NCBI GenBank assembly: GCA_032718475.1
Contig: JAUCBJ010007147.1
Span: 44,083 to 108,082, forward strand
DNA length: 64,000 nt
Reading direction: 5' to 3'
DNA from: Nemertoderma westbladi
Lineage: Eukaryota; Animalia; Xenacoelomorpha
Each line of letters starts with the position of its first letter. The stretch's first letter is position 1. This document shows, piece after piece, positions 2-56,670 of this stretch. The translations under genes were made by a program, and so were the position numbers. The notes beneath the pieces are model-generated. The model was not told where the DNA came from. It worked only from the letters and a program-made list of their open reading frames with translations, and ran no database searches.

Positions 2-3000
2 GCGGATCACTACAGGCCGAAACCAGAGCACAATACATCAAACGCATTGCCGAGGCTCAGGCAATCATTGCCATACGCAGCGACGCAGGGGACTGCAAGT
101 CCACAGGCAAACGAAGATAAGACAACATCATGGAACGGACAGGGGAACAATAACAACATGAATAAACATAACCCCAGTACGTCCAGTAGGCCAAACCCAG
201 TCAATAAGAATAGTAGGGACTTTGGTACGAATATAACTGCGATACGCAATGCATTGTATAAAGAGGGCTACGACCCAAAGAGCAAATGCCAGTTACACGC
301 AAATGCGCTTCATAAAACCATGAACTGCAGGTAATGGCAGGCGCTACCGAGGCAAGACCAGATAGATTACGCGTCGAGCAATAAAATCTGCTCGCGATGT
401 GTGAAGAGTGGACACAAGGCCAGGGAATGCCAAGAGAAGCCGGTCAAGTTTGGCCAAAGGAGAGGCCAAACGATGGCAACGAGCACGGTAGGGGCGAAGA
501 AGAGAGGCACGGTGTTACTTGGAGTAGTACCGGTGCGAGTGATCGGGGAAGGCAATCGATCAGTAACAACACTAATGCTGGTTGATAGTGGAGCTGCCTT
601 CACATTAGTCGAGGAATGGGTAGCCGAAGAAATAGGATTGAGAACAAGGCCAAGCAGAATGGCGGTAACAACCATCTCTAGCAAAGATGAGATCCTAGAG
701 ATGAGGACAGGACGGTGCGCAATTGCAGCAGTGGCACCAGGATGCGATTATGGGGCAACCATCGACCCCATCCAAGTAATAGAGTCAATTAACATCAATG
801 CCAGGCGGCCAACCAACATCGAGGTCGAGCAATACAAATTCCTGGACGACATTGACTTCTCGATCCCAGACGTGGACGTTAGGAAGGTATCCATCATAGT
901 AGGAATGGACTGCCCGACGGCCCACGAAAGAATGCAAACGGTCTTCGGCGAAGACAAGCAGAGTGACCCGGTGGCCATATTAACACCATTCGGGTGGACG
1001 CTGAGTGGTCCAATTAAGAGCAAGATACCATTCAGGATGTCGGAGACATCAGGATGCATGTTCGCGGGAACAATGCAGGAAATGGGTGATGAGGGAGCAG
1101 AGGAGCAGCTTAAAAGACTGCTCAGACAAGACTTTGAGGGACTGAAAGAGACCGGGGTCGGGACCTCGGTAGAAGACAAGCAGGCTCTACAAAGCGTGGA
1201 GGAATCGATGACGTGTGATGAGGGGCGGTATACAATAGGAATGGTATGGAAACTACCGAAAATACCGCTACCCAATAATAGAGGGATGGTACTCACGAGA
1301 CTCCGCAAGCTGAAACAAACACTAAAACGGAGCCCCGAGAAGAACGAGTACATTCACAAAACGATTAAGAAGTACGTTGAGAAAGGATGGGCCGTGGAGT
1401 TACCGGTCGACGAGCCGAACACGGACAGGACATACTACCTGCCACTCCACGTAGCTTTAGACCCAAAGAAAGGTCAACTTAGGATGGTAGTCGATGCATC
1501 GGCAAAGACCGACGGAAAGTGCTTAAACGACTACCTACTAGAGGGCCCAAACATATACAATTCGGGCATAGAAGTACTACTTAGATTTAGGAATGGGAAA
1601 CACGCCTTCACGTGCGACATAGAAGGCATGTTCAACCAAGTCCGTGTAACAGAGGAAGATAGCGACAGTCAACGCTTCTTATGGTATAACGGCGAGGAAG
1701 AACCGCCTATAATACCGGCATATAAGATGGTAGTACAAAACATGGGGGCCAAGTCGTCCTCATTTACGACGACTATGGCAGTGAGAGACACGGTCAAGGG
1801 GAAGGAAGATAGATACAGCAGTAGGGCCGTCGATATGATCCGACGCGGCTTCTACGTAGACGACGGTATGGAGTCTGGAAATACGGTTGAGGAGATACTG
1901 GAAACAGGGCGCGAGGTTCGCGACATCCTGAAAGGATCCGGCTTCAACCTGACCAAATTCCAATCCAGTTCAGAAGAATTTATCAAGGCAATAGAGGACA
2001 AGAAACCAGAATCGACCATGGACAACCCTACAACAGCCAAAGGACAGGACATGGCGAATAATAGAACACAATCTCAGCAAAAGGCATTGGGAATCGTGTG
2101 GGATAGAGGAACAGACGAACTGAAGTATCAGCTGAGCCAGGAGGGCGCAGACACCCATACGAAGAGGGGTTATGTATCGTATATAGCAAGGATATACGAT
2201 CCCCTAGGCCTAGCATCCCCATTACTAGTCACGGGGAAACAGATACTCAAGAGAGTATATAAATTGAAAGATGAGTGGGACGTAGAGGTACCAGAGGACA
2301 TCAAGAAACAGTGGAGCAAATGGACAGGAGACTTGGAGAGGATGGGAACATACAACATGCCGCGAGTGTATTTTCCGGATGGGAACATGACGAATCTGGA
2401 CCTACACATGTTCTCCGACGCGTCGTTGGAAGCGTACGGAGCGGCACTCTACTTAGTACAACGAGAAGGGGCTCACAAGCCAAGGCTAGCCTTTAGCAAA
2501 GCAAAGTCAACGCCGCCAGATTCAGCATCTGTTCCCAAGTTAGAATTGACAGCTGCGAGACTAGGAGTAAGAGCCACAGCCTACCTAGTGGATACTATTC
2601 CCAACATAGTGGAGACACACTACTGGACGGACTCCATGGTAGTGCTTGGTTGGCTACACAACGAAAAGACGAGATACCCGATATTCGTCGCGAATAGAGT
2701 GGACGAAATCAGGGCGAGCACAGAACTGGAAAGGTGGCACTACTGCCCAACAGACGAGAACCCAGCGGACTTGCTGTCGAGGGGCGTGGAACGCCACACT
2801 TTCTTAAAGAAGGAAGTATTGTGGCAACATGGGCCACAATTTCTGAGTGATAAAGAGGCCTGGCCGCCAATGAGAAAGGTGGAGCCGGGCTCAGAAGTGG
2901 TGTCAGAGGGAGAAGAGGGAGACTCAGAGGGAGAAGAGATATACTCCCAGATGGTAAGGGAGATTAGGGACGTGCAACCAAAGCAAGAACTATGCGATAA

Positions 3001-4492
3001 CCCGACGGACAAACTCCTCAGCTACAGTTCTAGTTGGTACAAGACCAAGAAACTAGTGGCGTACTGGAGAGCTTTCGGGAATTTCCTCGCGGGAGTTAAT
3101 AAGGAGAAGAAAACCAGGGAAACCATAGATCTGGAAGGAGCGGCCAAGGCAATAATCCGCTACGAACAACGGAAGAACTACAGCAACGATGTGGAACGTG
3201 TCGGCAACCAACAGCACCTCTGACGGGACAGCGAGTTGATTACGCTATCGCCACAACTCAACGACGATGGGATTCTAGTAATGAATTCTAGGGTGGGATA
3301 TAACAACAGCATAATCGTGCCACCGAAACCCATCATCATTCCCACAGGATCGCCTATAGTCCACCAGATCATATGGGACTCCCACAAATCGATATTGCAT
3401 GGGGGCACCAACCGAACCCTCACAGAGATAAGGAGGACCTATTGGGTCAAACAATTAAGGAAGAAGGTTAAAGCGGTAGTGGGGCAGTGCCAGACCTGCC
3501 GACGGGCGAAGAAGGAACGAGCCATACAGGAGATGGCGCCACTACCGGCGAGTAGGGTAAGGCAGCACGACCCGCCATTTACGCATTGCGGTGTGGACAT
3601 GTTCGGGCCGATAAAGATCAAGGTGATGCGACACACGGAGAAACGCTACGGTATTATCTTCGTATGCAACAATACGCGGGCGGTAGGGATAGAACTCGCC
3701 CAAGATGCAACCGCATCAGCATTCATTAACGCCTTAGAAAGGTTTAGGGACCGCAAAGGTGGGACGATCGCAGTGATATACAGCGACAACGGCACCAACT
3801 TTGTGGGCGCAGAGAGTGAGATGGCAGAAGCCTTGGACATCTTAGAAGGAGAAGAAGTCAGGGCGGCCATGAGAAGACGACAAGTAAAGTGGGAAAGAAG
3901 GACGCCGTATGCACCACATACACTAGGATGCGTCGAGAGACTGGTGGGCAGTTCAAAGCGTCTAATGACGAAGTTAATGAACACCCACATGGTCACTGAA
4001 GACGTCTTACGGACAGTACTTGCGAAGTGCGAGGGGATCATTAATAGCAGACCGCTATATCCGGAGAATGATGACCCTGAGTCATTAGACGTGTTGACGC
4101 CTAGCCATTTCCTGATGGAAAGGCCAGCGACCATCGATATGCGGGGTGTAGACCCAGATGACATACACTCCCGCCAAAGTTGGAAAGTCGCTAAAGCAAT
4201 AAGCGCAGAGTATTGGAGGAGGTGGGTCGAGGAATACCCACCCACGCTCCATAAGCGAAGCAAGTGGAGGAAACCGAACCGGGAGTTAGAAGTAGGAGAT
4301 CTCGTAATCGTTACGGATGATACTATCATCAACAACCAGTGGCGGTTGGCGAGAGTCGTACGCACTTACTCCGATGAGGACGGAAGAGTCCGATCGGTAG
4401 AAGTGCGAATAGGTGGGAAGATAGGTGCGAAGGACAGAAAAACCTACAGGAGAGCGGTAGGTAAATGCTGTCTCCTAGAAGGGGCACCTTAG
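2..4492 (+). pseudogene. BEL/Pao gag-pol polyprotein with two in-frame stops (TAA 332-334, TGA 3221-3223)
   Basis: ORFs 47-334, 401-3223 and 3236-4492 share one frame. Gag knuckle CSRCVKSGHKAREC; protease LVDSGA; RT YYLPLH, CLNDYLLEGP, FYVDD; RNase H FSDAS, PKLEL, WTDS, NPADLLSRG; integrase HHCC, GVDMFGP, SDNGTNFVGA, INSRPL. Confidence 0.95.
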
Positions 4493-4584
4493 AGTGGAGT
4501 TACAGAAAAGTTTAGTCGTCCAAGTTTTGGACTGAGGGGGGCAAGACGCCCTTTCCACACAAATAAAATAAAAATAAAATAAAA

Positions 4585-5205
4585 AATAGTTAGTTAGTTA
4601 GTAGGTACGTAGTGCCTAGAGTTAGAGAGTAGGTACGTAGTACCTAGAGTTAGTTAGTTAGTTAGTAGGTACGTAGTACCTAGAGTTAGTTAGTAGGTAC
4701 GTAGTGCCTAGAGTTAGAGAGTTAGTAGGTACGTAGTACCTAGAGTTAGTTAGTTAGTAGGTACGTAGTGCCTAGAGTTAGAGAGTAGGTACGTAGTACC
4801 TAGAGTTAGTTAGTTAGTTAGCAGGTACGTAGTACCTAGAGTTAGTTAGTAGGTACGTAGTGCCTAGAGTTAGAGAGTTAGTAGGTACGTAGTACCTAGA
4901 GTTAGTTAGTTAGTAGGTACGTAGTGCCTAGAGTTAGAGAGTTAGTAGGTACGTAGTACCTAGAGTTAGTTAGTTAGTAGGTACGTAGTGCCTAGAGTTA
5001 GTTAGTTAGTAGGTACGTAGTACCTAGAGTTAGAGAGTCAGTTAGAGGGTACGTAGTACCGCCAGTTAGAGTTAGAGTTAGAGGGTACGTAGTACCGCTA
5101 GTTAGAGTTAGAGTTAGAGGGTACGTAGTACCGCCAGTTAGAGTTAGAGTTAGTAGGTACGTAGTACCGTTAGTTAGAGTTAGAGGGTACGCAGTACCAT
5201 TAGTT
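4585..5205 (+). repeat. Array of ~19 TAGGTACGTAGT(A/G)CCTA hairpin units separated by (GTTA)n/GAGA linkers
   Basis: Directly visible; period about 28-36 bp; TAGGTAC/GTACCTA is a perfect 7-bp inverted repeat. Confidence 0.9.
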
Positions 5206-5693
5206 AGAAGAGAGAGAGTAAGAGGTAAAAGGGGTAAATAGGATATAGATATTAGTTAGCAGTAAGTAGAGTTAGTAGCGAAAGGGGGGCATGTGAGTAC
5301 AGCTGGGTAAGTCGTGTGGCCACACGACGTATACTGCTGTACTGCATAGGCCCACAAAGTAGGCCAGAATATGGATTAGAGAATAGAATAATCCATAGGC
5401 AGTAATAGGTAGTAAGACAGTAGAATTAAAATAAATAGAATAGGGCTGAAAGTTAGAAAATAGTGGCAACACAAGGGAAGTCGTTCTAGAACATAATAAA
5501 AGTAACGGACAGAAATTGTAAATTAGGCTCATTTACTAGCTTCAAAATTAATTAGGTTAAATTTAGGCTAAAAGGCGCAATTAAGTAGAAAGTAGGCCAT
5601 TATCGAACCGTACGAAACATCTTAATACATCACTCATCTGTATAGCGCCTTGGTAAGGCACCACCCTGCAGGTGAGCGAGTGTAGTGTTCGGA

Positions 5694-8243
5694 ATGGCGA
5701 GTAAGTTGATCAGGAAGAGGAAGGCGGAGTCAGGAGGAAAAGAAATACTGGTGGATTTCACCGAAAGACACCCGGAAGAGAAGACGAGAGAATACTACGA
5801 GAAGTTGGAAAGGGGTCACGCGGCACGAGCGCTGCAGGACCACTTCCGGGAGATGCACGAGCAGCGGCTGGTCGGGACCTACGGAACGCTGTCGCTGGAC
5901 AACGCGATCTTCCAACACTTCCACTACGTGGTGAAAGGGGACGAGGCGAAGTTCGGGATTCCGAAGTATCCGAGGGAATCACCGAGGAAGGACTGGAAGA
6001 GGTTCATAGAGTCCGTCAACAGGGGAGGATATATGATCCTAGATGACGAGGGAACCGTGGAAGACGAGGCGGATTCGAGACGAGGATCAGCGGGGTCGGC
6101 CAGGACCATACTCCTACATTTGGCCGCGCCAAATGGGGACATCTTCCTATTCGATTTAGGGACGTATGGGAAGAAGGACGGGCCGAAACTGAGTCAGTTA
6201 CCGAAAGCGGTACAAGTCTTGGTAAGAGAGAAGTCGACGACGAAAGTGGGATCGGCGATTCGCGAGGATGCGGAAAGGATCATCGGTCCGGACGCCACCA
6301 ACCTCCTGGATATGCAGAAGGTCTTTATGGCTATGACGGCACCGGATGGGTTGGGGCTAGTCGAAAACACAGGTCTATGCGGGGCAGTGGCGATGGGCCA
6401 ACTATTGGGGCTCGTATGTCACAAACCGATGGACTGGGGGAAGTTTAGGGAAGAATACGGAGCAGAACAAGCGAACTCGCTAAAGTGGGGAACGAGACCG
6501 GGAAAGCAGGAGGTATATCAATTTCGCAGAGGAGCGATAAAGGTATATCAGAAGCGATATATCTTGCAAGAAGACTGGATTATGATAAGTTTGCTTAACT
6601 TATTTATGACCGTAGTCATCGAGAGGGAACCAGGAGCATTTCTGTTATCGGGATCACCCCTAAGCTGCAGGAGAGCCTTTAAAGTGGCCTTTGACGGTCT
6701 GGTAGACCACCCGGGGCTGAAGGGCGAGTCGGTGTACTACAACAGCCGACATCTGGTAGACGGGGAGACAGATACACCGTATCAGAGATGGGAGCAGCTA
6801 GAGGCGGACAGACGAGAAGCAAAGCGACTGGAAGAAGTCGCTAGACGGGAGAGGATAGAAGCAGAGGAGAGGGAAGAGGAGGCCAGGGCACAGAGTTACG
6901 GCTTCGAGGAACAGGCGGGCCTAGACGAACTTCATTGGACTTTGTCAGGGAGTTCGGGGGAGTCTCTAGGGCGAGAATTGGGATGGACGGTGGGATCGCC
7001 GAAACAGTCGACGTCGGGGTTGCAAACGATGCCCATACCAGCGGGCGCCGAGGGCGACCAACCGCCAAGGAAGCTAAGGGAGCTAGAGGGATGGAAAGCT
7101 ACGGGCGAGAGCCAAGGCGGGAAAGGACATAGTGGATCCATCGGGATACCGGGATTGGAGACACTACCAGAAGAAGAGGACGACGACGACGAGTTCGGAG
7201 AGATGCCGCCCATCGAGAGGATAGGCCACTCGGACACGGACTGGGTTGGCGGAAGGGTGGTGACGGCCAGTGGGGCGAGGGCCTTCTGGAACAGATCCGG
7301 CAAGCGGACCTGGGTGCACGAGGAGCCGGCGATGGATTTCGCGGGGAGCACCATCAGGTTGGGCGAGCAACCGGGGACGGCACCACGGATAGTATTCGGG
7401 GAGACGATGCCTGAGAGGGGCGGAGAGATCGACGTAAACAGGGAGACCAACGTAGAGAAGTTCGCCTACCAGCGACTCCACAGACTGCGGAGATCGCTTG
7501 GGACGAAAGACGAGGTGGGACGGGAGACATTGGTACTCGGCTGCGACTACTGTGGGAGACAGACCCATCAGGAAAGCAGCTGCCTATACCGGTTCCAAAA
7601 GGGAACCTTTTGTCTCTACTGTAGAGAACCAAGCCACAGGATGGGGGCGTGTCCACGGTTGCACAACCGATGTCCAAAGTGCCACTTTCGGGGACACTAC
7701 GGGCGCGAGTGCGACTGGATGAGCGACGAGGAGAAGTTCACGAGGTTCGAGGAGTGGGCCGACGTCGGGGCCATGACGTGCCAGCGCATGAAGGCCCAAG
7801 AGTTCAAGTGGGGTTTCTTCCTTATCAATCAGGAGACCCACATGGAAATCATAAAGCGGAGGCTACCGTTTACCTACCAAGAGGTAGCAACGGCGGCGTC
7901 GTTCGCCGGAGTTATGAACACGCAACGGTACCTGGACAGGTGGACGCCAGAGAACCGAAGGGAGTTCAGGGATTTCTTGGCGGAGCACGTACCAAAGGCA
8001 ATGAAAATTATCCTATGGGACGCCACTAGAGGGAGACAACCGGGCCATTCTGAGGGGCCACCGGCGAAGCGATATCGGGCACTAATAACACCAGCGCCCA
8101 AGGAGCCAACGACCGGGATTAGCAAGGAAGTGGCGGCGAAGGACCGAAAGCAGAAAGCGGATGATGCCAGAGGAACGGTGATAACCAAGAAACGGCCCAG
8201 GGAAGAGGACGCCAGGGGGAACTACCCCCGGAGGAACAGATAG
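5694..8243 (+). CDS. Retrotransposon accessory protein (~849 aa): WRN/EXD-like DEDD 3'-5' exonuclease + coiled coil + three CCHC zinc knuckles
   Basis: Uninterrupted ORF. ExoI-like MILDDEG, then LLHLA..IFLFDL; ExoII-like LPKAV..KVGSAIRED; LLDMQ; ExoIII-like YILQE. Knuckles CDYCGRQTHQESSC, CLYCREPSHRMGAC, CPKCHFRGHYGREC. Basic NLS-like patches RKRK and KKRPR. Confidence 0.8.
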   Translation: MASKLIRKRKAESGGKEILVDFTERHPEEKTREYYEKLERGHAARALQDHFREMHEQRLVGTYGTLSLDNAIFQHFHYVVKGDEAKFGIPKYPRESPRKDWKRFIESVNRGGYMILDDEGTVEDEADSRRGSAGSARTILLHLAAPNGDIFLFDLGTYGKKDGPKLSQLPKAVQVLVREKSTTKVGSAIREDAERIIGPDATNLLDMQKVFMAMTAPDGLGLVENTGLCGAVAMGQLLGLVCHKPMDWGKFREEYGAEQANSLKWGTRPGKQEVYQFRRGAIKVYQKRYILQEDWIMISLLNLFMTVVIEREPGAFLLSGSPLSCRRAFKVAFDGLVDHPGLKGESVYYNSRHLVDGETDTPYQRWEQLEADRREAKRLEEVARRERIEAEEREEEARAQSYGFEEQAGLDELHWTLSGSSGESLGRELGWTVGSPKQSTSGLQTMPIPAGAEGDQPPRKLRELEGWKATGESQGGKGHSGSIGIPGLETLPEEEDDDDEFGEMPPIERIGHSDTDWVGGRVVTASGARAFWNRSGKRTWVHEEPAMDFAGSTIRLGEQPGTAPRIVFGETMPERGGEIDVNRETNVEKFAYQRLHRLRRSLGTKDEVGRETLVLGCDYCGRQTHQESSCLYRFQKGTFCLYCREPSHRMGACPRLHNRCPKCHFRGHYGRECDWMSDEEKFTRFEEWADVGAMTCQRMKAQEFKWGFFLINQETHMEIIKRRLPFTYQEVATAASFAGVMNTQRYLDRWTPENRREFRDFLAEHVPKAMKIILWDATRGRQPGHSEGPPAKRYRALITPAPKEPTTGISKEVAAKDRKQKADDARGTVITKKRPREEDARGNYPRRNR

Positions 8244-8948
8244 GTTCCCAGAGTCGAGGGGGAGGGACTGGGACTTAGACGTGGTACGCCTGGCAGGCGC
8301 CGCGCGGGATGTACGAACTATTAAGTACAAATTCAATTAATGCAAATAATCATATAAGTGCAATTTGTATGTACGTACGTAGTAATTAGTAATCTAGTAA
8401 AATACATACGTTTGGAGTAAGTACTATAGTCATACAACCTTTCTCAATTAGCTACTGGGACTGGGGGATAACTGACTATGGCACCATGGACGAGACAACT
8501 GACAATTTCACGCTTCTTGAGTGCGACGGCACGAGAGGGGGGGGAGGTTCGTCAGGAGAGATAAAACAGTCACAGTGGAGTTGAGGATCGGAGTAAGAGT
8601 GCGAAGTGCGGAGAGAGTGCGAACGCAATTCTAGTGTGGGGGGGGGGGAGAATAAGAGGCTGAGTGAGGGACGAGGAGGTCCGGGGGTATGAGAGAGTTA
8701 GGGTGAGAGTGGAGGGGAGATAGGGCGAAAGTGTTGGGGAAACAAAAGTCGCGTGAAGAGGTGAGCGCGATCGGCCCGACATGAGACGCCAGGCACACAG
8801 GGTAGCGTTATCATACCCATAAGGGGCGGCCTGGAAAGCCGGCTCCTAGAGAAAAGAATTCCACCCCACACCCGATACTAGATCGGGATCCAGCGGGATT
8901 GTAACGCACTTTTTGGTTGATGCTATCTTCTTACCGGGAAGATAGCAT

Positions 8949-8957
8949 GGGGGGGAG
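8949..8957 (+). other. Polypurine tract of BEL element copy 1
   Basis: GGGGGGGAG immediately 5' of the TG-starting LTR; same arrangement at 11638-11646 and 19951-19959 (minus). Confidence 0.85.
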
Positions 8958-9497
8958 TGTTAGCTTATTCAATCCCGCCAACACCCCATAAAGTTATAAG
9001 CCGATAAGCAATATTGGGAGCCACGAGATTGGGCAATTAACCAACTCGTGCCATCCCAATAAGAGTGGGAAGGAAGCACACAACAAGGGTCAGGGGCCAA
9101 ACCCCTAACCCAGAGGAGATAGGTGGAGTGAACGGGAATACTCCACGGGGCGCCAACAAGGGTATTAACCAATCAGAGGGGGGAAAGGCATCGATTGAGT
9201 AGCAATAAGGCCACCGTGCAATATAACCAATAACCTATTAATCAGTGATTCAGTTATCTCAGTGCAGCAGTGCTAGCGTAGGTTGGTAGTCAATTAGTTT
9301 AGTTAGGGGATCACGGGACTTTAGTTACCGTATCCCGCCTTGTACACATTATATCTATATCTATATCCTATGCCCTATTATTATTATACACCGAACTTCA
9401 GAACTCAGTTACTTTGTTTCATCCTTATACACGGCGGGGACGCGTGGACTAAATTACCACACCGGATAAATCGGGATCCCTCCTGGATCCCGTCACA
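8958..9497 (+). repeat. 3' LTR of BEL element copy 1 (~540 bp, TGT...ACA)
   Basis: TG...CA ends; homologous to 11647-12219 and 19392-19950. Confidence 0.85.
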
Positions 9498-10956
9498 GAC
9501 GGGGAGGTGGATACGCCATATCAGAGGTGGGAGCAGCTAGAGGCGGATAGACGAGAGGCGAAGCGATTGGAAGAAATCGCTAGGCGAGAAAGGAGGGAGG
9601 CAGAAGAAAGGGAGGAGGAAGCAAGAAGGGAAAGCTACGGGTTCGAGGAACAGGCGGCCTTAGATGAACTTCGTTGGAAATCATCAGGGAGTTCGGGCGA
9701 GTCTCTAGGGCGAGAATTAGGGTGGACGGTGGGATCACCAAAACAGTCGACTTCGGGATTGCAGAAGACGCCCATTCCAGCGGGCGCCGAGGGCGATTAC
9801 ACACTGAGGGGGCCAGGGGAGCTGGAAGGATGGAGAATCACGGGCGAAAGCCAAGGCGGGAAGGGACACAGTGGGTCCACCGGGATACTGGGATTGGAGC
9901 CACTCCCAGAGGAGGACGAGGATGACGACGAGTTCGGAGAGATGCCGCCCATCGGGAGGATCGGCCACTCGGACACGGACTGGGTTGGCGGGAGGGTGGT
10001 GACGGCCAGTGGGGCGAGAGCCTTCTGGGATAGACCCGGCAAGCGGGCCTGGGTGCATGAGGAGCCAACGATGGATTTCGCGGGGAGCACCATCAGGTTG
10101 GTCGAGCAACCGGGAACGGCACCACGAGTAGTATTCGGAGAGACGATACCCGGGAGGGGCGAGGAGATAGACGTGGACAGGGATGCTAACGTCCAAAAGT
10201 TCACTTACCAGCGACTCCACAGACCGAGGAGATCGCTTGGGACGAAAGACGACGTGGGGCGTGCTCGGCAGCGATTACTGCGGGAGGCAAACTCACCAGG
10301 AAAGGAGCTGTTTGTACCGATTCCAGAAAGGGACTAGTTGTCTCTACTGCCGCGAGTCGAGCCACAGGATGGGGGCGTGTCCACGGTTGCACAACCGGTG
10401 CTCTAAGTGCAACTTCCTGGGGCACTACGGATGCCAGTGCGACTGGATGGATGACGAAGAGAAGTTTAGGATCTTCGAGGAGTGGGCCGATGTCGGCGCC
10501 ATGACACAGCAGCGTATGAAGGCCCAGGAGTTCCGATGGGGCTTCTTTAATATCAACCAGGAGGCCCACCTGGAGATTATTAAACGGAGACTTCCGTTTA
10601 CCTACCAGGAGGTGTCAACGGCGGCGTCGTATGCCGGGGTGATAAATACGCAGAGGTATTTGGACAGGTGGACGCCACAGAACCGAGGAGAGTTTAGAGA
10701 TTTCTTGGCGGAGCATGTGCCGCGGGCGATGAAAGTGATCCTATGGGACGCCACTAGGGGGAGACAACAGGGCCATTCGGAGGGGCCACCCGCGAGGCAA
10801 TACCAGGAGCTGATAACTAGAGAGGTGAGGGCGAGGGTCAGGAGTCTGAAGGGAGATAAGGCCAAGGGAGCGGCAGCGGCCAGGAAACGACCAAGGGAGG
10901 AGGATGACAGAGGGAAGGAGTTGAGATCGTTCCCAAAGTCAGGTGGAACGAACTAG
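9498..10956 (+). pseudogene. C-terminal part of the exonuclease/zinc-knuckle ORF, copy 2; frameshifted by an ~11-nt deletion near 10260
   Basis: ORFs 9507-10337 and 10183-10956 align with the C-terminal half of 5694-8243. Confidence 0.9.
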
Positions 10957-11646
10957 AACTTGGATGTGGGATGCCTGGAAGGCACCACGTGAGAAGTACG
11001 AACTCCTAAGTGCAAAATTTAATTAATTAAAAGTGCAATTAGTATGTACGTATATAATAATCATTAATTTAGTCAAATAAGTAAATATAATCAAATAAGT
11101 ACTATAGTCATATAACCTTTTCCCATTAGCTACTGGGACTGGGGACCAATTGACTATGACAGAACGAGACACTGGACGACTTCATACTTCTTGAGTGCGA
11201 CGGCACAAAGGGGGAGGGTGAGGCCCGTCAGGAGAGAGTGGGTTGAGATAGGGGTTGAGTACGGAACGCGCGGAGAGAGTGCGGGTGCAATTCAAGCGTG
11301 GGGGGGGGGGGGAGAAGTAGGAGGTAGATTGAGGGACAGGGAGGTCCGAGAGTGAGGGTTGAAGAGAAGTTAAAGTCAGTTAGAGTGGAGAGAGTGTTGG
11401 GGAAACAAAAATTGTGTGAGAGAAAGCCACAATTGGCCCGACACGGGACACCAGATGTCTTGGTGCAGATAGATAAAGTTGCACCAAGACGGGGTAGCGA
11501 TATCATACCCATAGGGAGTGGCCTGGAAAGCCGGCTCGGAAAAAATAACTCCACCCCACACCCGATAGTAGATCGGGCTCCAGCGGAATTGTAGCGCACT
11601 TGAGGTAGATGCTATCTTTCCACCGGGAAGATAGAATGGGGGGGAG

Positions 11647-12219
11647 TGTTAGCGAATTCAATTCCGCTAACCACCCCATAAAGTTGGGAAAGCGGCGCCT
11701 TTAAGCAATATTGGGGAGTACGAGGTTGATTGCCAATCAACCTCGTATCACCCCCAATAAATGGGGACGACAAACCCCAAAGGGCCGCACACAATGGAGG
11801 TCAGAGGTTAAGCCTCCAGGGAGAAGGAAAGTAACAGCAGCGGGGGGGAAACACATCCCGCAGAGGTGAAGGCGAGAAGTAGGTTATCAACCAATGGGGG
11901 GACAGGAGAGGCATCATCTGAGTAGTAAGGCCAACACAGTGCAATATATTACCAGTTGGTGTTATATATTACAGTTTAGTTTACTCAGTTCAGTTAGGGC
12001 AGAACGGTAACTTTTATTACCGTCGCCGCCACCATCACCAATTATATTACCGGTATTTACATTATACATCCATTAACTGTGCTTTGTGCTTCACTCTACT
12101 ATATTCTATACATATCTGTTAATAACATCAGAACTCTTTCAATTTAACAACGAAGTCTTTCACACATGGCGGGGACGCGTAAATAAAATAACCGGTCGGG
12201 ATTCTCGGATCCCGTCACA
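11647..12219 (+). repeat. 3' LTR of BEL copy 2
   Basis: PPT then TGTTAGCG...GGATCCCGTCACA. Confidence 0.85.
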
Positions 12220-15968: not shown

Positions 15969-18900
15969 GGAGGTTAGGATTTTAACTGAACGGACCACAC
16001 TATACTACTCTGTACCGGTACAATTTGTGCTACTGACATAGGCCTATATGAGTGGTGATTTCAGTATTCTGTAAATTCTACAATTATCTAAGTTTAAACT
16101 CGCTACGATAACTCCATTAATTCTGTTCCTATCATGGTAGTAATACGTCGTGACTTGGTTTTCTCCATACCAGTAGTCGCGGCGTTGCTCCTACTGGTCA
16201 ATGCACTCATATTTCCAGTGTCTGAAGTAATGGCGGAGAAACAAACTCAACGACGGCGGGGATGTGCTGATAAGGAATATTCCCTAAGATGCATGTATCA
16301 GAATGTGCGCTCGCTGAATGAGAATAAAGTGTATGCTGTCAAAGAGGACATAATAGCTACAACGCTAGACTTAGTATTCATAGTCGAGCTATGGAACAAC
16401 GTTGAGTTCTTGAATCTCGCCACTCCGGAGGATTACTATAATCGGCATTTGACGAGGAAAGACCGTACTGGAGGAGGGGTGGCCGTTATAGCGCACAACT
16501 CGGTGAAACTGCGAAAAATACCCATCCCGGCTAATGAACAGTTTGAATCCTTGCTTCTAGCAACCGACAAAGAGCTTGTTCATGGGCGTTCATCGCCTCC
16601 CAAATAGTAAAAGGTATCCAACTTCAATTGTCGAGTATAAGAAAATTATTGATAGTACATTGGAAGACATGTCGTTAAAGTTCGACACAATTACTATTTT
16701 TGGCGATGCGAATTTATGGTTAGAATCTGACAAGTCGTTCCAATATCTATTGGAGACACACGGTTTCGATTTCAAGAAGACGGGTCCAACGCATAAGGAC
16801 GGTCATACTCTAGATTTTGTAGCTAGCCTGGGCTATAAAATCGCTGATGTTGATCTGGATCCTATAGATGAAGTGTTTAGTGATCATGCCAGTATGCGAT
16901 GGATATCGAATCTGTCCAGAAATGTCTCTAAATCTTATGAGGTACAGATAAGTTTTCGAGCCTGGAAAAACTTTGATAAGGATAAATTTATAACGGAGCT
17001 GAAAGTTAATGGATTGGATAAGAGTAGTGGAGATTTAACATGCAAAGGGTTTGAGGCGTGTGTAAAGAACCTGAGGAATTTGTTTGAACGACATGTTCCC
17101 ATGAAAGAGAAGATTGTAAAGATCAACACTAAACACTCGAAAATCAGGGAGGAAGATAGGGAGGGGATCCAGACTAAACGGAAGGAGAAGAGACGGTGTG
17201 AACTTGCGTTTCACAAAAACGGACTGAGCAGAACAAAGTTAATTTAAATATAGCAAAGTCGGACCTAGCGAAATTGCTTCGCGATTCTACAAGGGCGTTT
17301 TACTGCGATTATATTAATACCAATTCGACTAACTCAAAACTTCTGTGGAAACAGTTCAAAAGGTTATTGGGAAAGGGAGGAAACCTTGTTTTACCGACTA
17401 AGCATGGCAATAGTGCTGAGTTGGCAACAAAGTTCTCACATTTTTTCACTGAAAAAATTAACACTATTATGTTGACATTCAATACGAGCAGTCGATGTAA
17501 TAATCTCCCGAAATTGTATAAAACAGACTTTTGTGAATTTCAGCCTTTTCAAGAGGAGGACTTAGCTCAACTCATAAGGAAGATGTCAAATGCAACCTGC
17601 GAACTGGACTGTATGCCAACGCCTTTATTTAAATCAGTAATTCCCGTTGTTATTCAGCCCTTAACGATGTATATAAACATGGTTTTAGCAGATGCGGAAT
17701 TCCCAGCCTTTCTTAAACTGTCTATCGTAAGACCTCTCTTAAAGAAACCGGAGTTGGATGCTGAGATATTAAAAAATTATCGACCAGTGTCAAACCTTAG
17801 TTTCTTATCTAAGGTAGTTGAGAAAGTGATACTTGATAGAGCTACACCACAGCTAGCTTTTCACCAGACACAGTCTGGTTACAGACGGCACCATTCCACT
17901 GAAACTGCTAATCTATTTCTTCTAAATAAATTTCTTAAGGGAATAGAAAATCAACAAGTTACTTTGTGCTCCTATATTGATTTGAGTACGGCGTTCGACA
18001 CTGTCCATCACAAAAACCTTATATTTAAGCTCAGTAAAGAATTTGGGTTCACTGGTGCTGCACTTAATCTCTTTGAGTCCTATTTAGCTGACAGACATCA
18101 ATGCGTGAAAATTGATGAGAGTACATCTGATAAAACATTGCTTCAAACCGGCGTGCCTCAGGGAAGTATCCTTGGGCCAGCACTTTATAATGCATATATG
18201 ACTGACCTGTTCTGGCGTGTGGATGCATTAGGAGTGAAAGGTGCTAACTATGCTGATGACACACAATTCTTTGTGACTGGATATGCTGAAGATATAGAGA
18301 CCCTGAAGACTCGTATCACTGCTGTGCTACATATTGTTGCTGCTTGGATGGACGTTAATCACCTACAAATTAACCCAGATAAAACTGAACTGATTGTATA
18401 TGGCACGAAACAACAAAGAATGAAGATACCTCTGAATGCTAGAACAATTGTATACAGAAACGTTAAGATAGATTTCTCTGATAAGGTTAAATCTCTCGGA
18501 GTTGTGTTTGATAGTGAATTGAAATTTAAAGATCAGATAGTAGCAACAGCAGCGAAATCGAAATATTATATCCGGTCTTTGTATAAAATTCGGCCTTACC
18601 TTACAACTTCAGCTCTAGAAACCCTAGTCCACGCATTCATAACCAGCAGAATCGACTATTCAAACGCTGTCCTTAAAACATCCGCTAAATCAGTAGTTAA
18701 ACGTCTACAAATGATACAAAACAGCGCTGCAAGATTGGTTACTCATTCTCCACGATATCGTGTTATCAATGGACAATACAAGTACACCTCGGCAGCGGCA
18801 ATGCTGAAATCCCTTCACTGGCTGCCCATTGAATCACGGATTAATTATAAGCTTGCTTGTATCACATTTAAATGTCTGTCTGGGACTGCCCCGACTTATT

Positions 18901-19225
18901 TGCGCAATGAAATATCTATCCTTGAGGATACCCGTAAGTTGCGATCCAGCAATCTCTCAAAGCTTTCTGTCCCACTTGTGAAAAACACCCTAGCATCGAA
19001 GAGCTTCTACTCGTTTGCCCCTCGTTTGTGGAATAAACTACCGCCATCGACCCGATCAACTGAATCCATGATGACCTATGACTCATTTAGGCGCGAACTG
19101 AAAACCCTTTTGTTTACCGGTAATTGTAAATTAGATTAGTGTGGCAGCTGCAGGCGCCCTGATAAGAGTGTAAATACTCCCTAAGGGCGCCTGCAACACC
19201 AAATACAAATATCATTTATTATTAT
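15969..19225 (+). mobile_element. L2-clade LINE with APE-RT ORF, 3' stem-loop and (ATT)n tail; TSD TATAGATT
   Basis: TATAGATT at 15961-15968 and 19226-19233; the host RTE frame resumes after the insertion. Confidence 0.9.
16134..19139 (+). pseudogene. L2-like ORF2 (APE endonuclease + RT) with two frameshifts (~16580, ~17250)
   Basis: YQNVRSL, GGGVA, GDAN, PTHKDGHTLD, SDH; NYRPVSNL, GVPQGSILGP, YADD, LHWLPIESRINYK. Confidence 0.9.
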
Positions 19226-19391: not shown

Positions 19392-19950
19392 TGTGATGGG
19401 ATCCGAGAATCCTGATTTATCCGGTGTCCAATCTACGCGTCCCCGCCGTGTGTGTGTGAAAAGAGTTCTGGATTGTTGATTGATCGGTGTATATAAGTAT
19501 AGGGGTATATTATAATCGGATAAGATATGGCACAGTTAAAGTGAATGATAATATAGTGTACCGGTAAAATGGCTGAATAATGGATAACTGGTGGCAGTAG
19601 ATGGAGACGGTGATTAGAGTTCCGGTACTGCCCTAACTAATGGAATGACACAACAACTGGTAATATATTGCACTGGTTGGCCGTATTACATTACTCAGTG
19701 GATGCCTTCCCCCCCATTGGCTAATAACTCACTTCTCGCCTCCCATCTCCCTGGGAGTGTTCCCCCCCCCCCGCTGCTGTTATTCTCTCTCTCGGAGGTG
19801 TAACCTCTGACCCCTTTTGTGTGTTCCCTTGGGGCCTGTTGTCCCCGTTTATTGGGGTGACACGAGGTTGACTGGTTATCAACCTCGTGCTCCCAATATT
19901 GCTTAAAGCTAACTTTGTGGGGCTGGCTAGCGGAATTGAATACGCTAACA
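19392..19950 (-). repeat. 3' LTR of BEL copy 3
   Basis: Minus strand TGTTAGCG...GGATCCCATCACA. Confidence 0.85.
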
Positions 19951-20618
19951 CTCCCCCCCATGCTATCTTCCCGGTGAGAAGATAGCATCCACCTCTAGTG
20001 CACTAGAATTCCGCTGCATCCCGATCTACTATCGGGTGTGGGGTGGAATTATTTTCTCTGGAGCCGGCTTTCCAGGCTGCTCCCTATGGGTATGATATCG
20101 CTACCCTGCTTTCCTGTTGTCCCGTGTCGGGCCGATCGCGCGCTCCTCTCACACGACTTTTGTTTCCCCAACACTTTCACCACTAACTCCACTCCACTTT
20201 TACCCTAACTCTTCCATACTCTCGGACCTCCTCGTCCCTCACTCTGCCTCTTACTTCCACCCCCCCCCCACACTTGAATTGCACCAGCACTCTCTCCACA
20301 CTGTTACTCAACCCCTATCTTGCCCACTCACTCCTGATGAGTCTCACCCCCCTCCTGTGCTGTCGCACTCAAGAAGTGTGAAGTCGTCCAGCGTCATGTT
20401 TGTCATAGTCAATTGTTCCCCAGTCCCAGTAGCTAATTGGAAAAAGGTTGTATGACTATAGTACTTACTTTGCTTGTATTCGTTTACTAAACTAATGATT
20501 GCTACGTAGGTACGTCGTACATACTAATTGCACTTTTTAATCATTTAAATTACTTGAATTTGTACTTAAGAGTTTGCACGTCTCACGTGGTGCCTTCCAG
20601 GCATGCCACATCAAAGTC

Positions 20619-22911
20619 TTAATTCGTCCCACCTCGCTTTGGGAACCACCTTAACTCTTTCCCTCTGTCATCCTCCTCCCTGGGTCGTTTCCTGGCCGCT
20701 GCCGCTCCTTTGGTCTTATCTCCCTTCAGGCTTCTGACCCTCGCTGTCACCTCTCTACTAATCCCGGTCGTCGGCTCCTTGGGCGCTGGTGTTATTAGCT
20801 CCCGGTATCGCTTCGCGGGTGGCCCCTCCGAGTGGCCCTGTTGTCTCCCCCTCATGGCGTCTCATAGGATCACTTTCATCGCCCGCGGCACATGCTCCGC
20901 CAAGAAATCTCTGAACTCCCCCCTATTCTGTGGTTTCCACCTGTCCAAATACCTCTGCGTATTTATCACCCCGGCATACGACGCCGCCGTTGCTACCTCC
21001 TGGTAGGTAAACGGAAGTCTACATTTGATAATCTCCAAGTGGGCTTCCTGGTTGATATTAAAGAAGCCCCACCAGAACTCCTGGGCCTTCATACGTTGCT
21101 GAGTCATGGCCCCAACATCGGCCCACTCCTCAAAGACCCTAAACTTCTCCTCATCATCCATCCAGTCGCACTGGCGTCCGTAGTGTCCCTGGAAGTTGCA
21201 CTTCGAACACCGGTTGTGCAACCATGGACACGCCCCCATCCTGTGGCTCGACTCGCGGCAGTAGAGACAAATAGTCCCTTTCTGGAACCGGTACAAACAG
21301 CTCCTTTCCTGGTGGGTTTGCCTCCCACAGTAGTCGCAGCCGAGCACCAATGTCTCCCGCCCCACGTCGTCTTTCGTCCCAAGCGATCTCCGCGGTCTGT
21401 GGAGTCGCTGGTAAGCGAACTTTTGGACATTAGTGTCCCTATCCATGTCTATCTCCTCGCCCCTCCCGGGCATCGCCTCCCCAAACACCACCCGCGGTGC
21501 CGTTCCCGGCTGCTCGCCCAGCCTGATGGCGCTCCCCGCGAAATCCATCGCCAGCTCCTCATGCACCCAGGCCCGCTGCTTGCCGGGTCTATCCCAGAAG
21601 GCCCTCGCCCCACTGGCCGCTGGTATGGGTGTCATCTGCAATCCCGATGTCGACTGTTTCGGTGATCCCACCATCCACCCTAATTCTCGCCCTAGAGACT
21701 CCCCCGAACTCCCTGACGACGTCCAACGAAGTTCGTCTAAGGCCGCCTGCTCCTCGAAGCCATAGCTCTGCGCCCTAGCTTCCTCCTCCCTTTCTTCTGC
21801 TTCCCTCCTCTCCTGTCTAGCGATTTCTTCACTTCTCGTCTATCCGCCTCTAGCTGCTCCCATCTCTGATACGGCGTATCTACCTCCCCGTCTACCAGAT
21901 GTCGGCAGTTATAGTACACCGACTCGCCCTTCAGCCCCGGGTGGTCTACCAGACCCTCGAAAGCCATCTTGAAGGCTCTTCTGCAGCTTAGGGGTGATCC
22001 CGATAATAGGAATGCCATTGGTTCTTTCTCAATGACGACTATCATGAATAGGTTAAGCAAACCCATCATTATCCAGTCCTCCTGCAGGATATATCGCTTC
22101 TGATATACCTTTATCGCTCCTCTCCGGAATTGATACACCTCTTGTTTTCCTGGTCTCGCTCCCCACTTCAGCGAGTTCGCTAAGTCCGCTCCGTACTCCT
22201 CTCTGAACATGCCCCAGTCCATCGGTTTGTGACACACGAGCCCCATTAGCTGGCCCATCACCACCGCCCCACAATGGCCGGTGTTCTCCACTAACCCCAA
22301 CCCATCTGGTGCTGTCATAGCCATGTAGACCGTCTGCGTATCCAGAAGGTTGGAAGCATCGTCGCGAATCGCCGATCCCACTTTCGTCGTCGACTTCTCT
22401 CTCACTAGGGTTTGCACCACCTTCGGCAACTGTTTCAACTTCGGCCCGTCCTTCTTTCCATACGTCCCCAGATCGAATAGGAATATATCCCCATTTGGCG
22501 CGGCCAAATGCAGGAGTATGGTTCTGGCCGACGCCGCGGATCCTCTCCTCGAACCCTCCTCGTCTTCCACGGTTCCCTCATCGTCTAGGACCATGTATCC
22601 TCCCCTGCTGACGGACTCTACGAACCTCTTCCAATCCTTCCTCGGTGGATCCCTTGCGTACTTCGGAATCCCAAACTTCGCTTCATCTCCTTTCACCACG
22701 TAGTGGAAATGCTCGAAGATCGCGTTGTCCAGCGACGGCGTCCCGTAGGCACCTCCCTGAAATGGTCTTGTAGCACTCGCGCTCCGTGACCTCTCTCCAA
22801 CCACTCGTAGTATCCCCTCGTCTTCTCTTCCGGATGCCTCTCGGTGAAATCCACCAGTATCTCCTTTCCTCCTAACTCCGCCTTTCTCTTCCTGATCAGT
22901 TTCCCCGCCAT
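20619..22911 (-). pseudogene. Exonuclease/zinc-knuckle ORF copy 3 (frameshifts, deletions, TGG>TGA at 20862-20864)
   Basis: ORFs 22693-23007, 21737-22804, 20862-21674 and 20619-20855 tile the protein of 5694-8243. Confidence 0.9.
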
Positions 22912-23252
22912 TCCGAACTCTCTCACTCGCTCACCTGTAAGGTGGTGCCTTGCCAAGGCGCAGTACAGATGAGTGATAAGGTTAAGATGGTCTGTACAGT
23001 TCGACAATGGCTTATTTCTTACTTAACCTCGAGTTATAGCCTAATTTTCCCTACTTAATTTCCAAAACCGCTAAATTGTACCCTAAATTGTAATTTTGTC
23101 CATTACTTTAATTATGTTCCAGAATTTTCCTCCTACTGTTACCATAATTTGTTTAATTTCTATTTCTATTTTATTTTAATATTTAATCTAACCCTATTAC
23201 TGTGCTACTACTTCTGCCAGTGGATTATCCTACTTTATAATCCGCATTCTGG

Positions 23253-30800: not shown

Positions 30801-30918
30801 AATACGCAGACAGTACCCACAGTTAAATATGCAAAATATAAGTATATTTTTCAATGGTAATATGGATAATATTGAACAATTGTGTAGGTATATAGAGTCA
30901 GTAATGTCTGTATATTAA
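27823..30918 (+). CDS. LINE ORF2: APE endonuclease + RT + C-terminal Cys/His motif; uninterrupted but no ATG before the APE domain
   Basis: SWNICGL, FLSE, GDLNARVG, GSDHAP; NYRGIS, FVDFSKAYD, GVRQG, LMDD, YLGS; RVCPC..DEVHTLLHC. Confidence 0.9.
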   Translation, partial: GGAAQHLFRTLSLCSWNICGLKDKLLDPQILRYIHSHDIVFLSEIKTNKPTHVPGFTQYINTPTPSHRGGILALVKCTLAKFVLEVDTSKEDQLWLRFSFAPDTLIGTSYITPCDSRYFSTQMFGNLNATLEENRKVIVVGDLNARVGVPKYTGERHVINRKYHGVEDNAVNSNGERLLRICSTTGSVVANHLETGRGVLGGGLSYRKGKSWVSSLDLCVITSCLVSNVVKVSVDRNQHGSDHAPLLVEVEININNKKYLTSAIYDRAGDLGAVWTELNFNNYRTTPLGEKGPSHCNTNLDQFKDLITSIHPPIINDASREGGQNIVETATQILNETAKSCKVKKQYDCIHNVNLPESNNDRWARLVSLNDPKLIWHAVNWKGEIDKLKPRRESMPDDNQFKSHFEALLNPPSAETVHMTDEFSTAPYVPILDDPLSEKEFAEVLSEIKINKSYIGVALGLFTSLPGNWLIFFLAFFNFVFKFGAYPTSWCYSKLIIIFKSGSRAICGNYRGISIMETCAKIYDMLLSARLSLWCNISRCQAGGRKNRSCTEHILALRLLIDYAIFKREKLFVLFVDFSKAYDNIPRMKLIERLRKLGCGKVMLMAILATYTCTKSILKSAIICTAIGVRQGAATSVILFSLYIDNLVTMVCNTVTQDGYLGILHIMLLMDDTIILSTNRNLCLRKLGALIAFCKESGMKINVKKTKFFVVNGAMYDRTPLVVNDVTVNHCTTYTYLGSIFTEDGKFNSVFNLHKTRCEEIVNKFSIFCAHNTNIAFCVKKQVFEAAVATAFLYGCEGWLTNNTKSLDIFYGRMIKILLGVREQTPTDICLIEVGMPSIQTRIMKYRKRFLQKALHTLPEDTPFRQALTICKNVNSPGYNMIKCAMAWSEPSPTNSDILTRIRKKPSTATKFVTYRTSLNMDLTCHSIYSLKSPYVPDYIRVHFSRMRLMSHNLFVERGRWSRIPHEERVCPCDNKSVQDEVHTLLHCPISLPIRRQYPQLNMQNISIFFNGNMDNIEQLCRYIESVMSVY

Positions 30919-37284: not shown

Positions 37285-37553
37285 GTTTAGGTTTATACTG
37301 TATATTAATTCATTGCGCGAATAATGGTCACATATGGCCATAATTAATCAATATTAACTCGAATGATATTACTATACTATACTGTAAGTCTAATATCTAT
37401 AGTTCATTCGCTTTAAATAAAGCCAGTAAAATATTGATCCCTTGCATATACTGTAGAAGCAATGAACGTGGCGACAGATGTCTATAATTTAACATTATAC
37501 TGTATGTACAAAGGAGTCAAGTAGAGAGAGGGAGAGCTTAAATAATAATAATA

Positions 37554-47971: not shown

Positions 47972-48218
47972 TAATGATTAAAACCGGAGTAACATTTAGA
48001 AAATTATATTTAGTATCGAGTAAACCGTTAGCTACTGATTTAAAACCTCAAGATATACATAGAGTAAATACTATAAAAAGAAAACCCTACAAAACTCTCT
48101 CAAAGAAAATAAAAAATTTCAACTGTTTTTACGGTGATGCCCTTTATAAGAGATTTGAATATACATATTACTTGCGGTTGTCGAAAAGATGCCACGCAAG
48201 ATGAGACCGATTTTAAGC

Positions 48219-50486
48219 TGGAGCTTAGACAAAAAACTGGGAACGAAAAGTACCCGCACGCCATTTCCTGCGCGATATTCCGAGCGCTTCTCCGCACTTT
48301 GGTCTTTATGTGGCTATTGGCGTAGGTTTCGAACATAACCATATTTCCCATAGCGGTTACATCCTTCGTAGGACACTTTATATTGCAGCGGGGGCTAGCG
48401 GAATGTCCACTGAAACCGCATGTTGTGCAGAGGTTATAGAGGGTTGGACAAAATGAAACATCATGTCCCGATGTCGCGCAGTAGGGACAATAAAGTATCC
48501 CGAGGAGCTGGAGGCACGAATCGGTTACCCGATTTCTCTTACCACTTGGGCACTGCTCCGAACCGCAGTTTCCGCACACCACCAGTTGCATCTCCCGACT
48601 GAAGAATATTGGAATCGGGATGCCAGCGTAATACTCAAGTCGTCGGTCGCATTTAGGAATATTCGCCGTGGCCGGTAGCCCGCGAAAAGCTGGGCTTTGG
48701 CGTAGTATGTTCTCGTTTCGATAACTTTCTTTATACCCTGCCAGTCGCATCCCGGGCGCCCGTTTCTGGGAGTGGATCCATTCGGTCTGCTAGGCGTACC
48801 ATCGGGTAAGTCGCATAGGGTCCTGTGGAACGGAAGGGGTTGTTGCCACAGCTGGTCGGCGAAGAGGTGCCGGGCGTTCGACGGAGGAATTCCGAGGAGA
48901 CACTGGGACCCTTTTCAACCTGTATCGCTGAGCGGGTCCATTGGGTGCTGGTACTCGGGATCTCCGAAGACCAGTCTTCTCCCCCTGGGAACGGATATGG
49001 AGACAACCTCTGACATATGTCGCCGAAGTCATTTAATGCGAAGGTAGTTACTAGCTCCCTAGCGGGACTACCGGAGCCAAGTGGGGTGGATACGCCTGCT
49101 TCCGTCGCAGGTTCGGCCGATCCCGGCGACTTCCGGATCGAGTTGTCGCTTTGGGGTGGACAGCTGTAGCCAACCTTCCTGTAGCCATAATTCCTCCCCA
49201 TCCGAAGAAATCAGTGGTTCCTCCGCACCGAGGAGATCAGCAATCGTAGGGATGTTGAACGGTCCATTCTTGTCCCAGGATGCGATGACGGTGAGCGTTT
49301 TCGTCTCTCCCGGTGAAATATTCTCTACCGCTTTGAACGCGTGGTCGATAACTTCGTTCCACTCATAATCGGTAAAGGATCTAGGAACCGCCTTAATGAG
49401 ACTATTGAGAGTTTTACAGATGAACTTAGCAACTGTGTATGATTCCATAACGACCTAGATATAGTTCCGTCGATCCGGATTCTCCCACTTGTGGTGGATC
49501 GTCCACTTTCTTTCAACATCCTTCCAGCGACTCTCTCGCTCACTCTTTATTTCTAATTCCGGGTAACCACCATATATCTTATTATAATCCTTGAATTTTT
49601 GGGGTTTAAAATCTATACCGCCATTTAGCACTGCGAGGTAGCCGATACCGGATTTCATCCATCTCACCTCTCGGAATCCACGCATGAATTCTGCGGATCG
49701 CAACCTGGCTAGCAGTGTTTGGGTGTCGACGCAATGACTAATGGCGTTGAGATCTTCTTGACGGTTTCTTCCGAAAGCGTAGTCGTTTCGGACGTCCGCC
49801 TTTATATCCGACCCGATTTTAATGATGTCGAAGTCAAATAGGATCTTTTGGATCTCAGGTGGTAATAGCCAGATCGCTCCGGCTGTCCGCACCTCCTGTT
49901 TGGGTGTCGGAAATATTCGACATACCAACACCAAACCGTCTAGGGTTCCGAGGACGACGACCAAGGATCGACCGTATTCCTTCGTCCTATATTTCTCTTG
50001 GTAGTCGTCGCGATTCTGGATAACTGATATACGTTCCTCTCGCAGCGTCGTTGTACACTCCGCTAGGTTTCCCCAGTGGGCGAGGTACGTACTCTTGTCG
50101 TCGACGAAACTTTGGCATCGCGCCAACGTAATCGCTTTCGAGGTGGGCGTCGCGTTTCCCTCGTTGTCATATATCAAACATCGGGATTTGTAGACGCTTT
50201 GCCGGAACGTTTCCCAGAACGACAACTCCTCTCCTCCGGTTGCCTTTGCGTTCCGAGTTCTTTGCAGTCTCGTACTAACATCGGTCAACCGGAGCTCACA
50301 TAGATTCCGGGAATCCGGTCCCTCTCGCCCGGAGAATTTAACGACTCGCACATTCTCATTTATCAGGGCATTCCATTTTGTATCAAACTTAGGAGATCCA
50401 GGCTGTGGATATTCCAGTAAATCGAGTGTATTACATATTTCGCCGAGAATTTGGCGATTTGGGTCCATATTTTCAATTATGTCCAT
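48219..50486 (-). pseudogene. Divergent homolog of the DEDD-exonuclease/zinc-knuckle gene (stops, frameshifts, 3'-truncated)
   Basis: LIYDNEG, LPPEIQKILFDFDIIKIGSDIKAD, CVDTQ, SGIGYLA; CPYCATSGHDVSFCPTLYNLCTTCGFSGH; FETYAN..AQEMACGYF. Confidence 0.75.
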
Positions 50487-50689
50487 TGCAAATTTACATC
50501 AGTTAATTATAAATCCAGAAAGTCTGATTCTATAGTGACTGCAGAATAATTCAGTTTATTTGTAATTCAGTTTATTAATTATTATTGCTATATAGGCATC
50601 TACCATCTTATTGCTACTACATTCAGTATTTACAGTTACTATAGCTATACAATTATCCAACCAGTTTTGACTTTTTATGTCCTCTTCTT

Positions 50690-56663: not shown

Positions 56664-56670
56664 GGCGGGG

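Follow-up and report, generated by a model that had tools for sequence, protein, structure and literature searches.

ORF3, a long open reading frame lying between pol and the 3' LTR of a BEL/Pao retrotransposon in Nemertoderma westbladi, is an accessory gene of its retrotransposon family and is kept by selection. Its arrangement is a variant of one already described in other elements: ORF3 is real, selected and probably encodes a DEDDy nuclease with zinc knuckles. The function that we favour, at a probability of roughly 0.55, is that of an RNA-binding 3'-5' exoribonuclease that would act for the element and be made from spliced RNA. The analysis covers a stretch of 64,000 nucleotides (the window), in which ORF3 occurs in one intact copy (copy 1), two broken copies (copies 2 and 3) and a distant relative (family B). 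All coordinates are those of the window (Table 1).

Table 1 Coordinates of ORF3, its carrier element and its relatives in the window
Feature	Position	Strand	Details
Gag end and pol, BEL/Pao	2..4492	+	One frame; stops interrupt at 332-334 and 3221-3223
A-rich AATAAA run	4561-4585	+	5' of tandem array
Tandem array in pol-ORF3 spacer	4588..5208	+	~32-nt units; TRF
Conserved pyrimidine-richer block	5620..5693	+	CAG/G at 5669-5672, 22 nt upstream of ATG
ORF3	5694..8243	+	849 aa, one terminal stop
Predicted DnaQ/DEDDy 3'-5' exonuclease domain	5991..6623	+	~residues 100-310
Three CX2CX4HX4C zinc knuckles	7542..7712	+	Residues 617-630, 640-653, 660-673
Stem-loop then PPT	8922..8957	+	Common to all three copies; fold z -3.1, -1.1, -3.1
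PPT	8949-8957	+	Directly 5' of 3' LTR
3' LTR, copy 1	8958..9497	+	540 nt, TG...CA; 81% identity (aligned columns) to LTRs of copies 2 and 3
Copy 2	9498..12219	+	ORF3 3' part from ~residue 360, frameshift near 606-610; PPT; LTR 11647-12219
Copy 3	19392..23252	-	Part of spacer, broken ORF3, PPT, LTR 19392-19950
Family B ORF3 relative	48100..50498	-	Nuclease-like and knuckle domains; stops and one frameshift break gene

The carrier element

The gag-pol frame of copy 1 encodes, in order, a knuckle, a protease with the sequence DSG, a reverse transcriptase with YVDD, an RNase H, an integrase and DUF5641. Pfam matches in pol are to PF05380 (E 1.7e-40), PF18701 (DUF5641; E 9.5e-24) and PF17921 (the integrase zinc domain; E 6e-13), the first of these being the RNase H of BEL/Pao elements according to PMC3985635. 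The domain order PR-RT-RH-IN, the Pao-type RNase H and DUF5641 assign the element to the Belpaoviridae, and the hallmarks YVDD (reverse transcriptase), DSG (protease) and DAS (RNase H), given for BEL/Pao in PMC554778, are all present in the pol of copy 1. A first-pass annotation, made from the sequence alone, had named the element as BEL/Pao, an assignment that the Pfam matches, YVDD and the domain order bear out, and had placed the extra frame in the env position; it does lie there, between the integrase stop (4492) and the PPT and 3' LTR (8949-9497). The two in-frame stops of copy 1 gag-pol were absent from that annotation.

Within the window, the end of gag shows a single canonical knuckle and a variant box, with a stop between them. 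A triple Cys-His box is a BEL/Pao trait, and the Tas element is without one in its Gag (PMC554778, in part). The 5' LTR and PBS of copy 1 are beyond the window edge and only its 3' LTR and PPT are seen, the family norm being two LTRs of 0.2-1.2 kb. Copies 1-3 each end in a PPT and an LTR, with 81-87% identity among the three LTRs. Stem-loops abut the PPTs at 8922-8948, 11612-11634 and 19960-19988.

Straight after the integrase stop, the AATAAA run and the 32-nt array (together 4561-5208) could be a polyadenylation site or a protein-binding array. The block that immediately precedes the ATG of ORF3 is 82-85% identical to copy 3, compared with 65-78% farther upstream, and its CAG/G site ranks sixth of 404 YAG sites by upstream pyrimidine content. 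This site is likely to be a splice acceptor (5671) for a subgenomic RNA encoding ORF3, although as CAG/GTGAGC it is readable as a splice donor too. A spliced subgenomic RNA is described as the usual route of ORF3 expression in PMC5408684.

Copies and selection

Copy 2 begins inside ORF3 directly after the copy 1 LTR, which suggests that copy 1 was probably inserted into copy 2. In copy 3, ORF3 is damaged by frameshifts near residues 54-62 and 378, by in-frame deletions and by an early stop near residue 775, and the upstream side of the copy is truncated by a LINE fragment. Comparison of copy 1 ORF3 with copies 2 and 3 gave dN/dS values of 0.07-0.21 in every one of 13 segment comparisons, values that are not those of a chance reading frame. 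The nuclease domain gave 0.09 (187 codons, dS 0.63) and the knuckles 0.09 and 0.07 in two comparisons. With purifying selection evident throughout, ORF3 is a long-standing component of the family that selection has maintained, even though copies 2 and 3 have since decayed.

The ORF3 protein

From N- to C-terminus, the protein consists of a basic patch, a DEDDy-like domain, an acidic low-complexity linker, three CCHC knuckles, a conserved post-knuckle domain and a basic tail. Much of what the first-pass annotation had read from the letters holds: the frame is uninterrupted for 849 codons, with a single terminal stop; the motifs that it quoted are all found, at residues 112 (GYMILDDEG), 140 (LLHLA), 150 (IFLFDL), 184 (KVGSAIRED), 204 (LLDMQ) and 236 (QLLG); the triple zinc knuckle comprises three canonical CX2CX4HX4C boxes within residues 617-673; and its NLS-like patches correspond to basic stretches at both ends of the protein. 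It had also reported the lack of a signal peptide or transmembrane segment. A hydropathy scan found neither a signal peptide nor a clear transmembrane segment, the 19-residue Kyte-Doolittle mean peaking at 1.44 (residues 290-309) and the N-terminus being charged, and ORF3 is thus not an Env-like glycoprotein.

The knuckle region has CCHC clusters among its ESM Atlas matches, all scoring below 0.9, and its matches in the PDB are weak (Gag knuckles, E 0.11; the Trypanosoma brucei RNase D, TbRND, 7c42, E 0.45). Relatives of ORF3 were found in none of 7989 candidates from a homolog search with the full protein, and in none of 7997 from a search among longer proteins that used the knuckle alignment as query. 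A phmmer search of 1.84 billion representatives with residues 85-369 gave one low-complexity match only; no related loci were seen in metagenome, viral or prokaryote contigs, and tblastn against plasmids gave seven chance-level rows in one search and none in another. These empty searches do not imply novelty, because the collections searched hold few animal transposon proteins.

Evidence for a DnaQ fold

That residues ~100-310 adopt a DnaQ fold is a prediction in which we place high confidence, because several individually weak results agree. An ESM Atlas search with residues 85-345 returned 30 matches with best scores of 0.94-0.95 (scores that are uncalibrated for parts of proteins), 25 of them in clusters bearing PF01612 and five in unnamed clusters; all ten of the best named matches belong to one family or clan. 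Alignment by hhalign of a three-sequence alignment with 59 bacterial PF01612 domains (59 of 60 loci were used, one being dropped for its low score) gave a probability of 59%, a pairwise E of 9e-5 and a score of 35.4, which none of 100 column shuffles reached (maximum 23.3). Against three subgroup profiles, the probabilities were 2.4, 6.6 and 3.3%. Copy 1 alone scored 23.9, beating 60 of 60 shuffles and all six control segments (11-17), and family B alone scored 19.7, which was reached by two of 60 shuffles. The score in hmmsearch was 4.1 bits, exceeded by one in 1000 shuffles.

When the three-sequence profile was compared with 177,635 PDB sequences, EXD2 ranked first (E 1.3). Foldseek placed RICE1 and EXD2 in its first two rows with the second of two AlphaFold models, both at a nonsignificant E of ~0.9, and the TbRND nuclease domain (7c4c) at rank 18 (E 2.1). 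In a wide structure search, actin-depolymerising folds led (Z 4.0) and EXD2 had a Z of 2.5. Confidence is low in both AlphaFold models (pLDDT 33 for the single-sequence model and 38.5 for the other); the predicted order of strands and helices agrees with an RNase H-like fold. PF01612 was not matched at E values up to 10, Pfam and NCBIfam being empty for the nuclease domain, and none of the single fold tests reaches significance at database scale. The DnaQ-like exonuclease proposed in the first-pass annotation is accordingly best called probable rather than proven: the ESM Atlas, the profile-profile alignment and the ranking of EXD2 speak for it, the Pfam null and the poor AlphaFold models against.

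In the hhalign register, D117 and E119 fall at Exo I and D192 at Exo II, and LLDMQ corresponds to the IDTQ-type motif; the PDB profile search also aligned Exo II with that of EXD2. Exo III was left unaligned by the programs; by eye, Q286-x-x-Y289-x3-E293 fits the Q-x-x-Y-x3-D of the reference sequences, with D294 adjacent, and the last position is then Glu instead of Asp. Copy 3 shares Y289, E293 and D294 with copy 1; the corresponding place in family B holds no acid. Because Exo III is placed by eye only, with Glu for Asp, catalysis is left less sure than the fold, and the balance tips somewhat towards the domain being catalytically active.

Family B, a second family member

In family B the nuclease part is 20% identical to that of ORF3, with a nonsignificant pairwise E of 0.39, and has a 46-residue insertion after Exo I; it retains D-x-E-G, K-x-G-S-x-I-x-x-D, D-x-Q and K-P. 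The knuckle region is 31% identical and matches the three copies by tblastn within the window at E 6e-8 to 3e-6, and residues after the knuckles are also held in common. Family B is repetitive in public contigs (depth 3,000-19,000). No pol adjoins it in the window. An LTR-like sequence is found upstream of family B at ~52040-53242.

Relation to known systems

Daidara gypsy elements, another class than BEL/Pao, reportedly carry DEDDy exonuclease cargo, in an account attributed to Kojima in 2023. Juno and Vesta are Ty3/gypsy-type LTR retrotransposons. DEDDy ORF3s have been described in these elements, and in the Athena/Terminon retroelements, of bdelloid rotifers (Rodriguez, Kenefick and Arkhipova 2017; PMC5408684, in part). 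The Juno and Vesta ORF3s, as given there, resemble that of Nemertoderma in being separate non-envelope ORFs downstream of pol that encode a DEDDy-type 3'-5' exonuclease with no transmembrane domain and an altered motif (DEED in rotifers), and the same candidate roles apply (PMC5408684). The Nemertoderma ORF3, which is likened to them by description, differs in its BEL/Pao carrier and apparently high copy number, and its length of 849 aa, three CCHC knuckles and further conserved domain have no counterpart in what that paper, from abstract to discussion, says of the rotifer ORF3s. The Juno, Vesta and Terminon ORFs were themselves absent from the results of our homolog searches, in collections poor in animal transposon proteins. 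The same paper reports mostly neutral variation within the rotifer ORF3s that were sequenced (env and GDSL), and a DnaQ-like domain is named as a known retroelement accessory domain in a later opinion paper (PMC6338049).

The first-pass annotation knew of no BEL/Pao lineage with a standalone exonuclease. As a concept the arrangement is not new: LTR elements with DEDDy ORF3s where env would lie are on record (PMC5408684, in part), which goes part of the way to the prior description that the annotation had itself named as grounds for refutation. The BEL/Pao carrier and the fusion to knuckles are what we have not found in print. Our search found no report of an exonuclease in a BEL/Pao element or of a knuckle fusion on an LTR element, with Repbase, Dfam, GyDB, supplements and subscription papers lying outside the search, where a BEL entry may exist. 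The word 'exonuclease' never appears in the body of a survey of BEL/Pao elements (PMC3118150), and the third genes given for Belpaoviridae in the ICTV profile are env-like only. The Nemertoderma element would bring BEL/Pao into the range of elements with exonuclease cargo where env usually lies, and its knuckle fusion parallels a known guide-RNA-trimming enzyme.

That enzyme is TbRND, in which a DEDDy domain is likewise followed by a zinc-finger cluster; TbRND trims guide RNAs, and its zinc-finger domain markedly enhances the ability of the DEDDy domain to bind and trim RNA (PMC7797062, in part). TbRND is, however, a cellular enzyme with four fingers adjoining the nuclease, whereas ORF3 belongs to a mobile element and its three knuckles lie ~300 residues away. 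Among cellular proteins, EXD2, WRN-exo, Mut-7 and EXD1 (PF01612) give the best profile and fold matches to ORF3, in which the residues of Exo I and Exo II are equivalent to D108, E110 and D171 of EXD2 (PMC6648332, in part). ORF3 differs from the cellular DEDDy proteins in its low identity (~13-20%), in the spacing of Exo II and Exo III (97 versus 71) and, by eye, in the Glu at the last ligand. DEDDy exonuclease cargo is also found in Dada DNA transposons, a different class of element in which it lies inside the transposase (PMC3706591, in part).

Proposed function and alternatives

If ORF3 is an exoribonuclease, its protein would be translated from the spliced subgenomic RNA made via the acceptor at 5671 and, through its basic patches, would enter the nucleus. 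The zinc knuckles may hold single-stranded RNA there, and the putative acidic site (D117/E119/D192/E293) would trim the held RNA from its 3' end, in the manner of the zinc-finger-assisted RNase D of trypanosomes. Small guide RNAs of the host, or the precursors of these, would be the likeliest substrate, in which case silencing of the element could be weakened in trans; the second likeliest would be the element's own RNA or primer. Taken overall, host small RNAs are a tentative choice of target, at less than even odds. Should ORF3 act on them, it would be a rare example of a counter-defence enzyme encoded by an animal transposon. A broader and slightly more doubtful proposal is that the BEL/Pao elements of N. 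westbladi carry an old, diversified family of knuckle-guided exoribonucleases, comprising two or more subfamilies with ~20% identity, by which piRNAs or siRNAs of the host are destroyed or wrongly trimmed. If so, this would be an element-encoded enzymatic suppressor of small-RNA silencing, helping to explain the very high abundance of the element. The clear purifying selection and the one intact copy make the role of retrotransposon DEDDy proteins directly testable here.

ORF3 might instead be a catalytically weak or dead RNA adaptor with a DEDDy fold, like EXD1, Maelstrom and Egalitarian, that serves the nuclear export, localisation or protection of element RNA; Egalitarian, Rev and CERV offer likenesses for such a role. 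This is improbable, but has several observations in its favour: the atypical Exo III with its Glu for Asp by eye, the lack of an acid there in family B together with the 46-residue insertion, the basic patches at both ends of ORF3, and the inactive DEDD derivatives known in piRNA biogenesis (PMC5408684, in part). Set against these, all three sequences retain, at 20% identity, the D-x-E of Exo I and the Asp of Exo II, and Y289, E293 and D294 persist in copies 1 and 3.

Somewhat less probable again is an active nuclease that works on the element's own replication intermediates (the tRNA primer, the 3' end of the genomic RNA or cDNA overhangs) or proofreads for reverse transcriptase in the particle, a reading that overlaps with the one we prefer in that both assume catalysis. 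Nucleocapsid-like knuckles could recruit ORF3 to particles, as the weak matches to Gag knuckles would allow, and 3'-end processing has been proposed both for element RNA (PMC5408684, in part) and for the DEDDy domain of Dada transposons (PMC3706591, in part). ORF3 is, however, separate and unfused to Gag-Pol, and BEL/Pao elements have been described without such an ORF (PMC8742986; PMC3118150, in part), so that the core cycle can do without it.

It is very unlikely that ORF3 lies behind pol by chance, either as part of a non-autonomous unit of its own or as a host gene captured recently. Only copy 1 of the three copies has pol beside ORF3, family B is likewise without it and the 5' LTR is beyond the window. 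Copies 2 and 3 are, however, cut by insertions on their 5' side and no LTR copy was found within the pol-ORF3 spacer. ORF3 is intronless and resembles pol in composition and codon bias: third-position T is 0.09 in ORF3, 0.11-0.14 in pol and 0.34 in the LINEs of the window, and a purine bias common to ORF3 and pol is not shared with those LINEs. In two DNA runs, public contigs cover the stretch from pol through the spacer to ORF3 continuously and without a drop, with every bin between 1 and 8200 above 21,000 in summed depth. This figure is not a copy number and comes from runs both found using ORF3, and the pol-to-ORF3 span is in no single contig. Near-identical long contigs elsewhere have a depth of 27-32. 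The coverage reads as a many-copy family in which the junction of pol and ORF3 shows no sign of being unique. Just as poorly placed is the idea that the domain has some fold other than DnaQ and that its motifs match by chance, which accords with the lack of a significant Pfam, PDB or Foldseek match but not with the agreement of four methods on one family, the catalytic residues being in register.

Other elements in the window

A second BEL/Pao-like family is present on the reverse strand (42240-46990 and 55308-56699). It has a probable 1.5-kb 5' LTR at ~45500-46990, which is 71-75% like 52059-53210 in two patches; its gag bears a triple Cys-His box and its protease is decayed. A 21-nt tandem array (55453-56191) comes after a second gag scrap. 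Three ORFs on the forward strand (33327-34010, 47024-47554 and 37542-38078) are presumably fragments of a Polinton/Maverick packaging ATPase (GPSGSGKS) and minor capsid protein. ORFs of LINE type with endonuclease and reverse transcriptase were recognised by eye at 27823-30918, 16098-19139 and 56618-59992, one of them running for 1031 aa with no stop. A further tandem array, of seven copies of a unit of ~220 nt, lies at 61385-63123.
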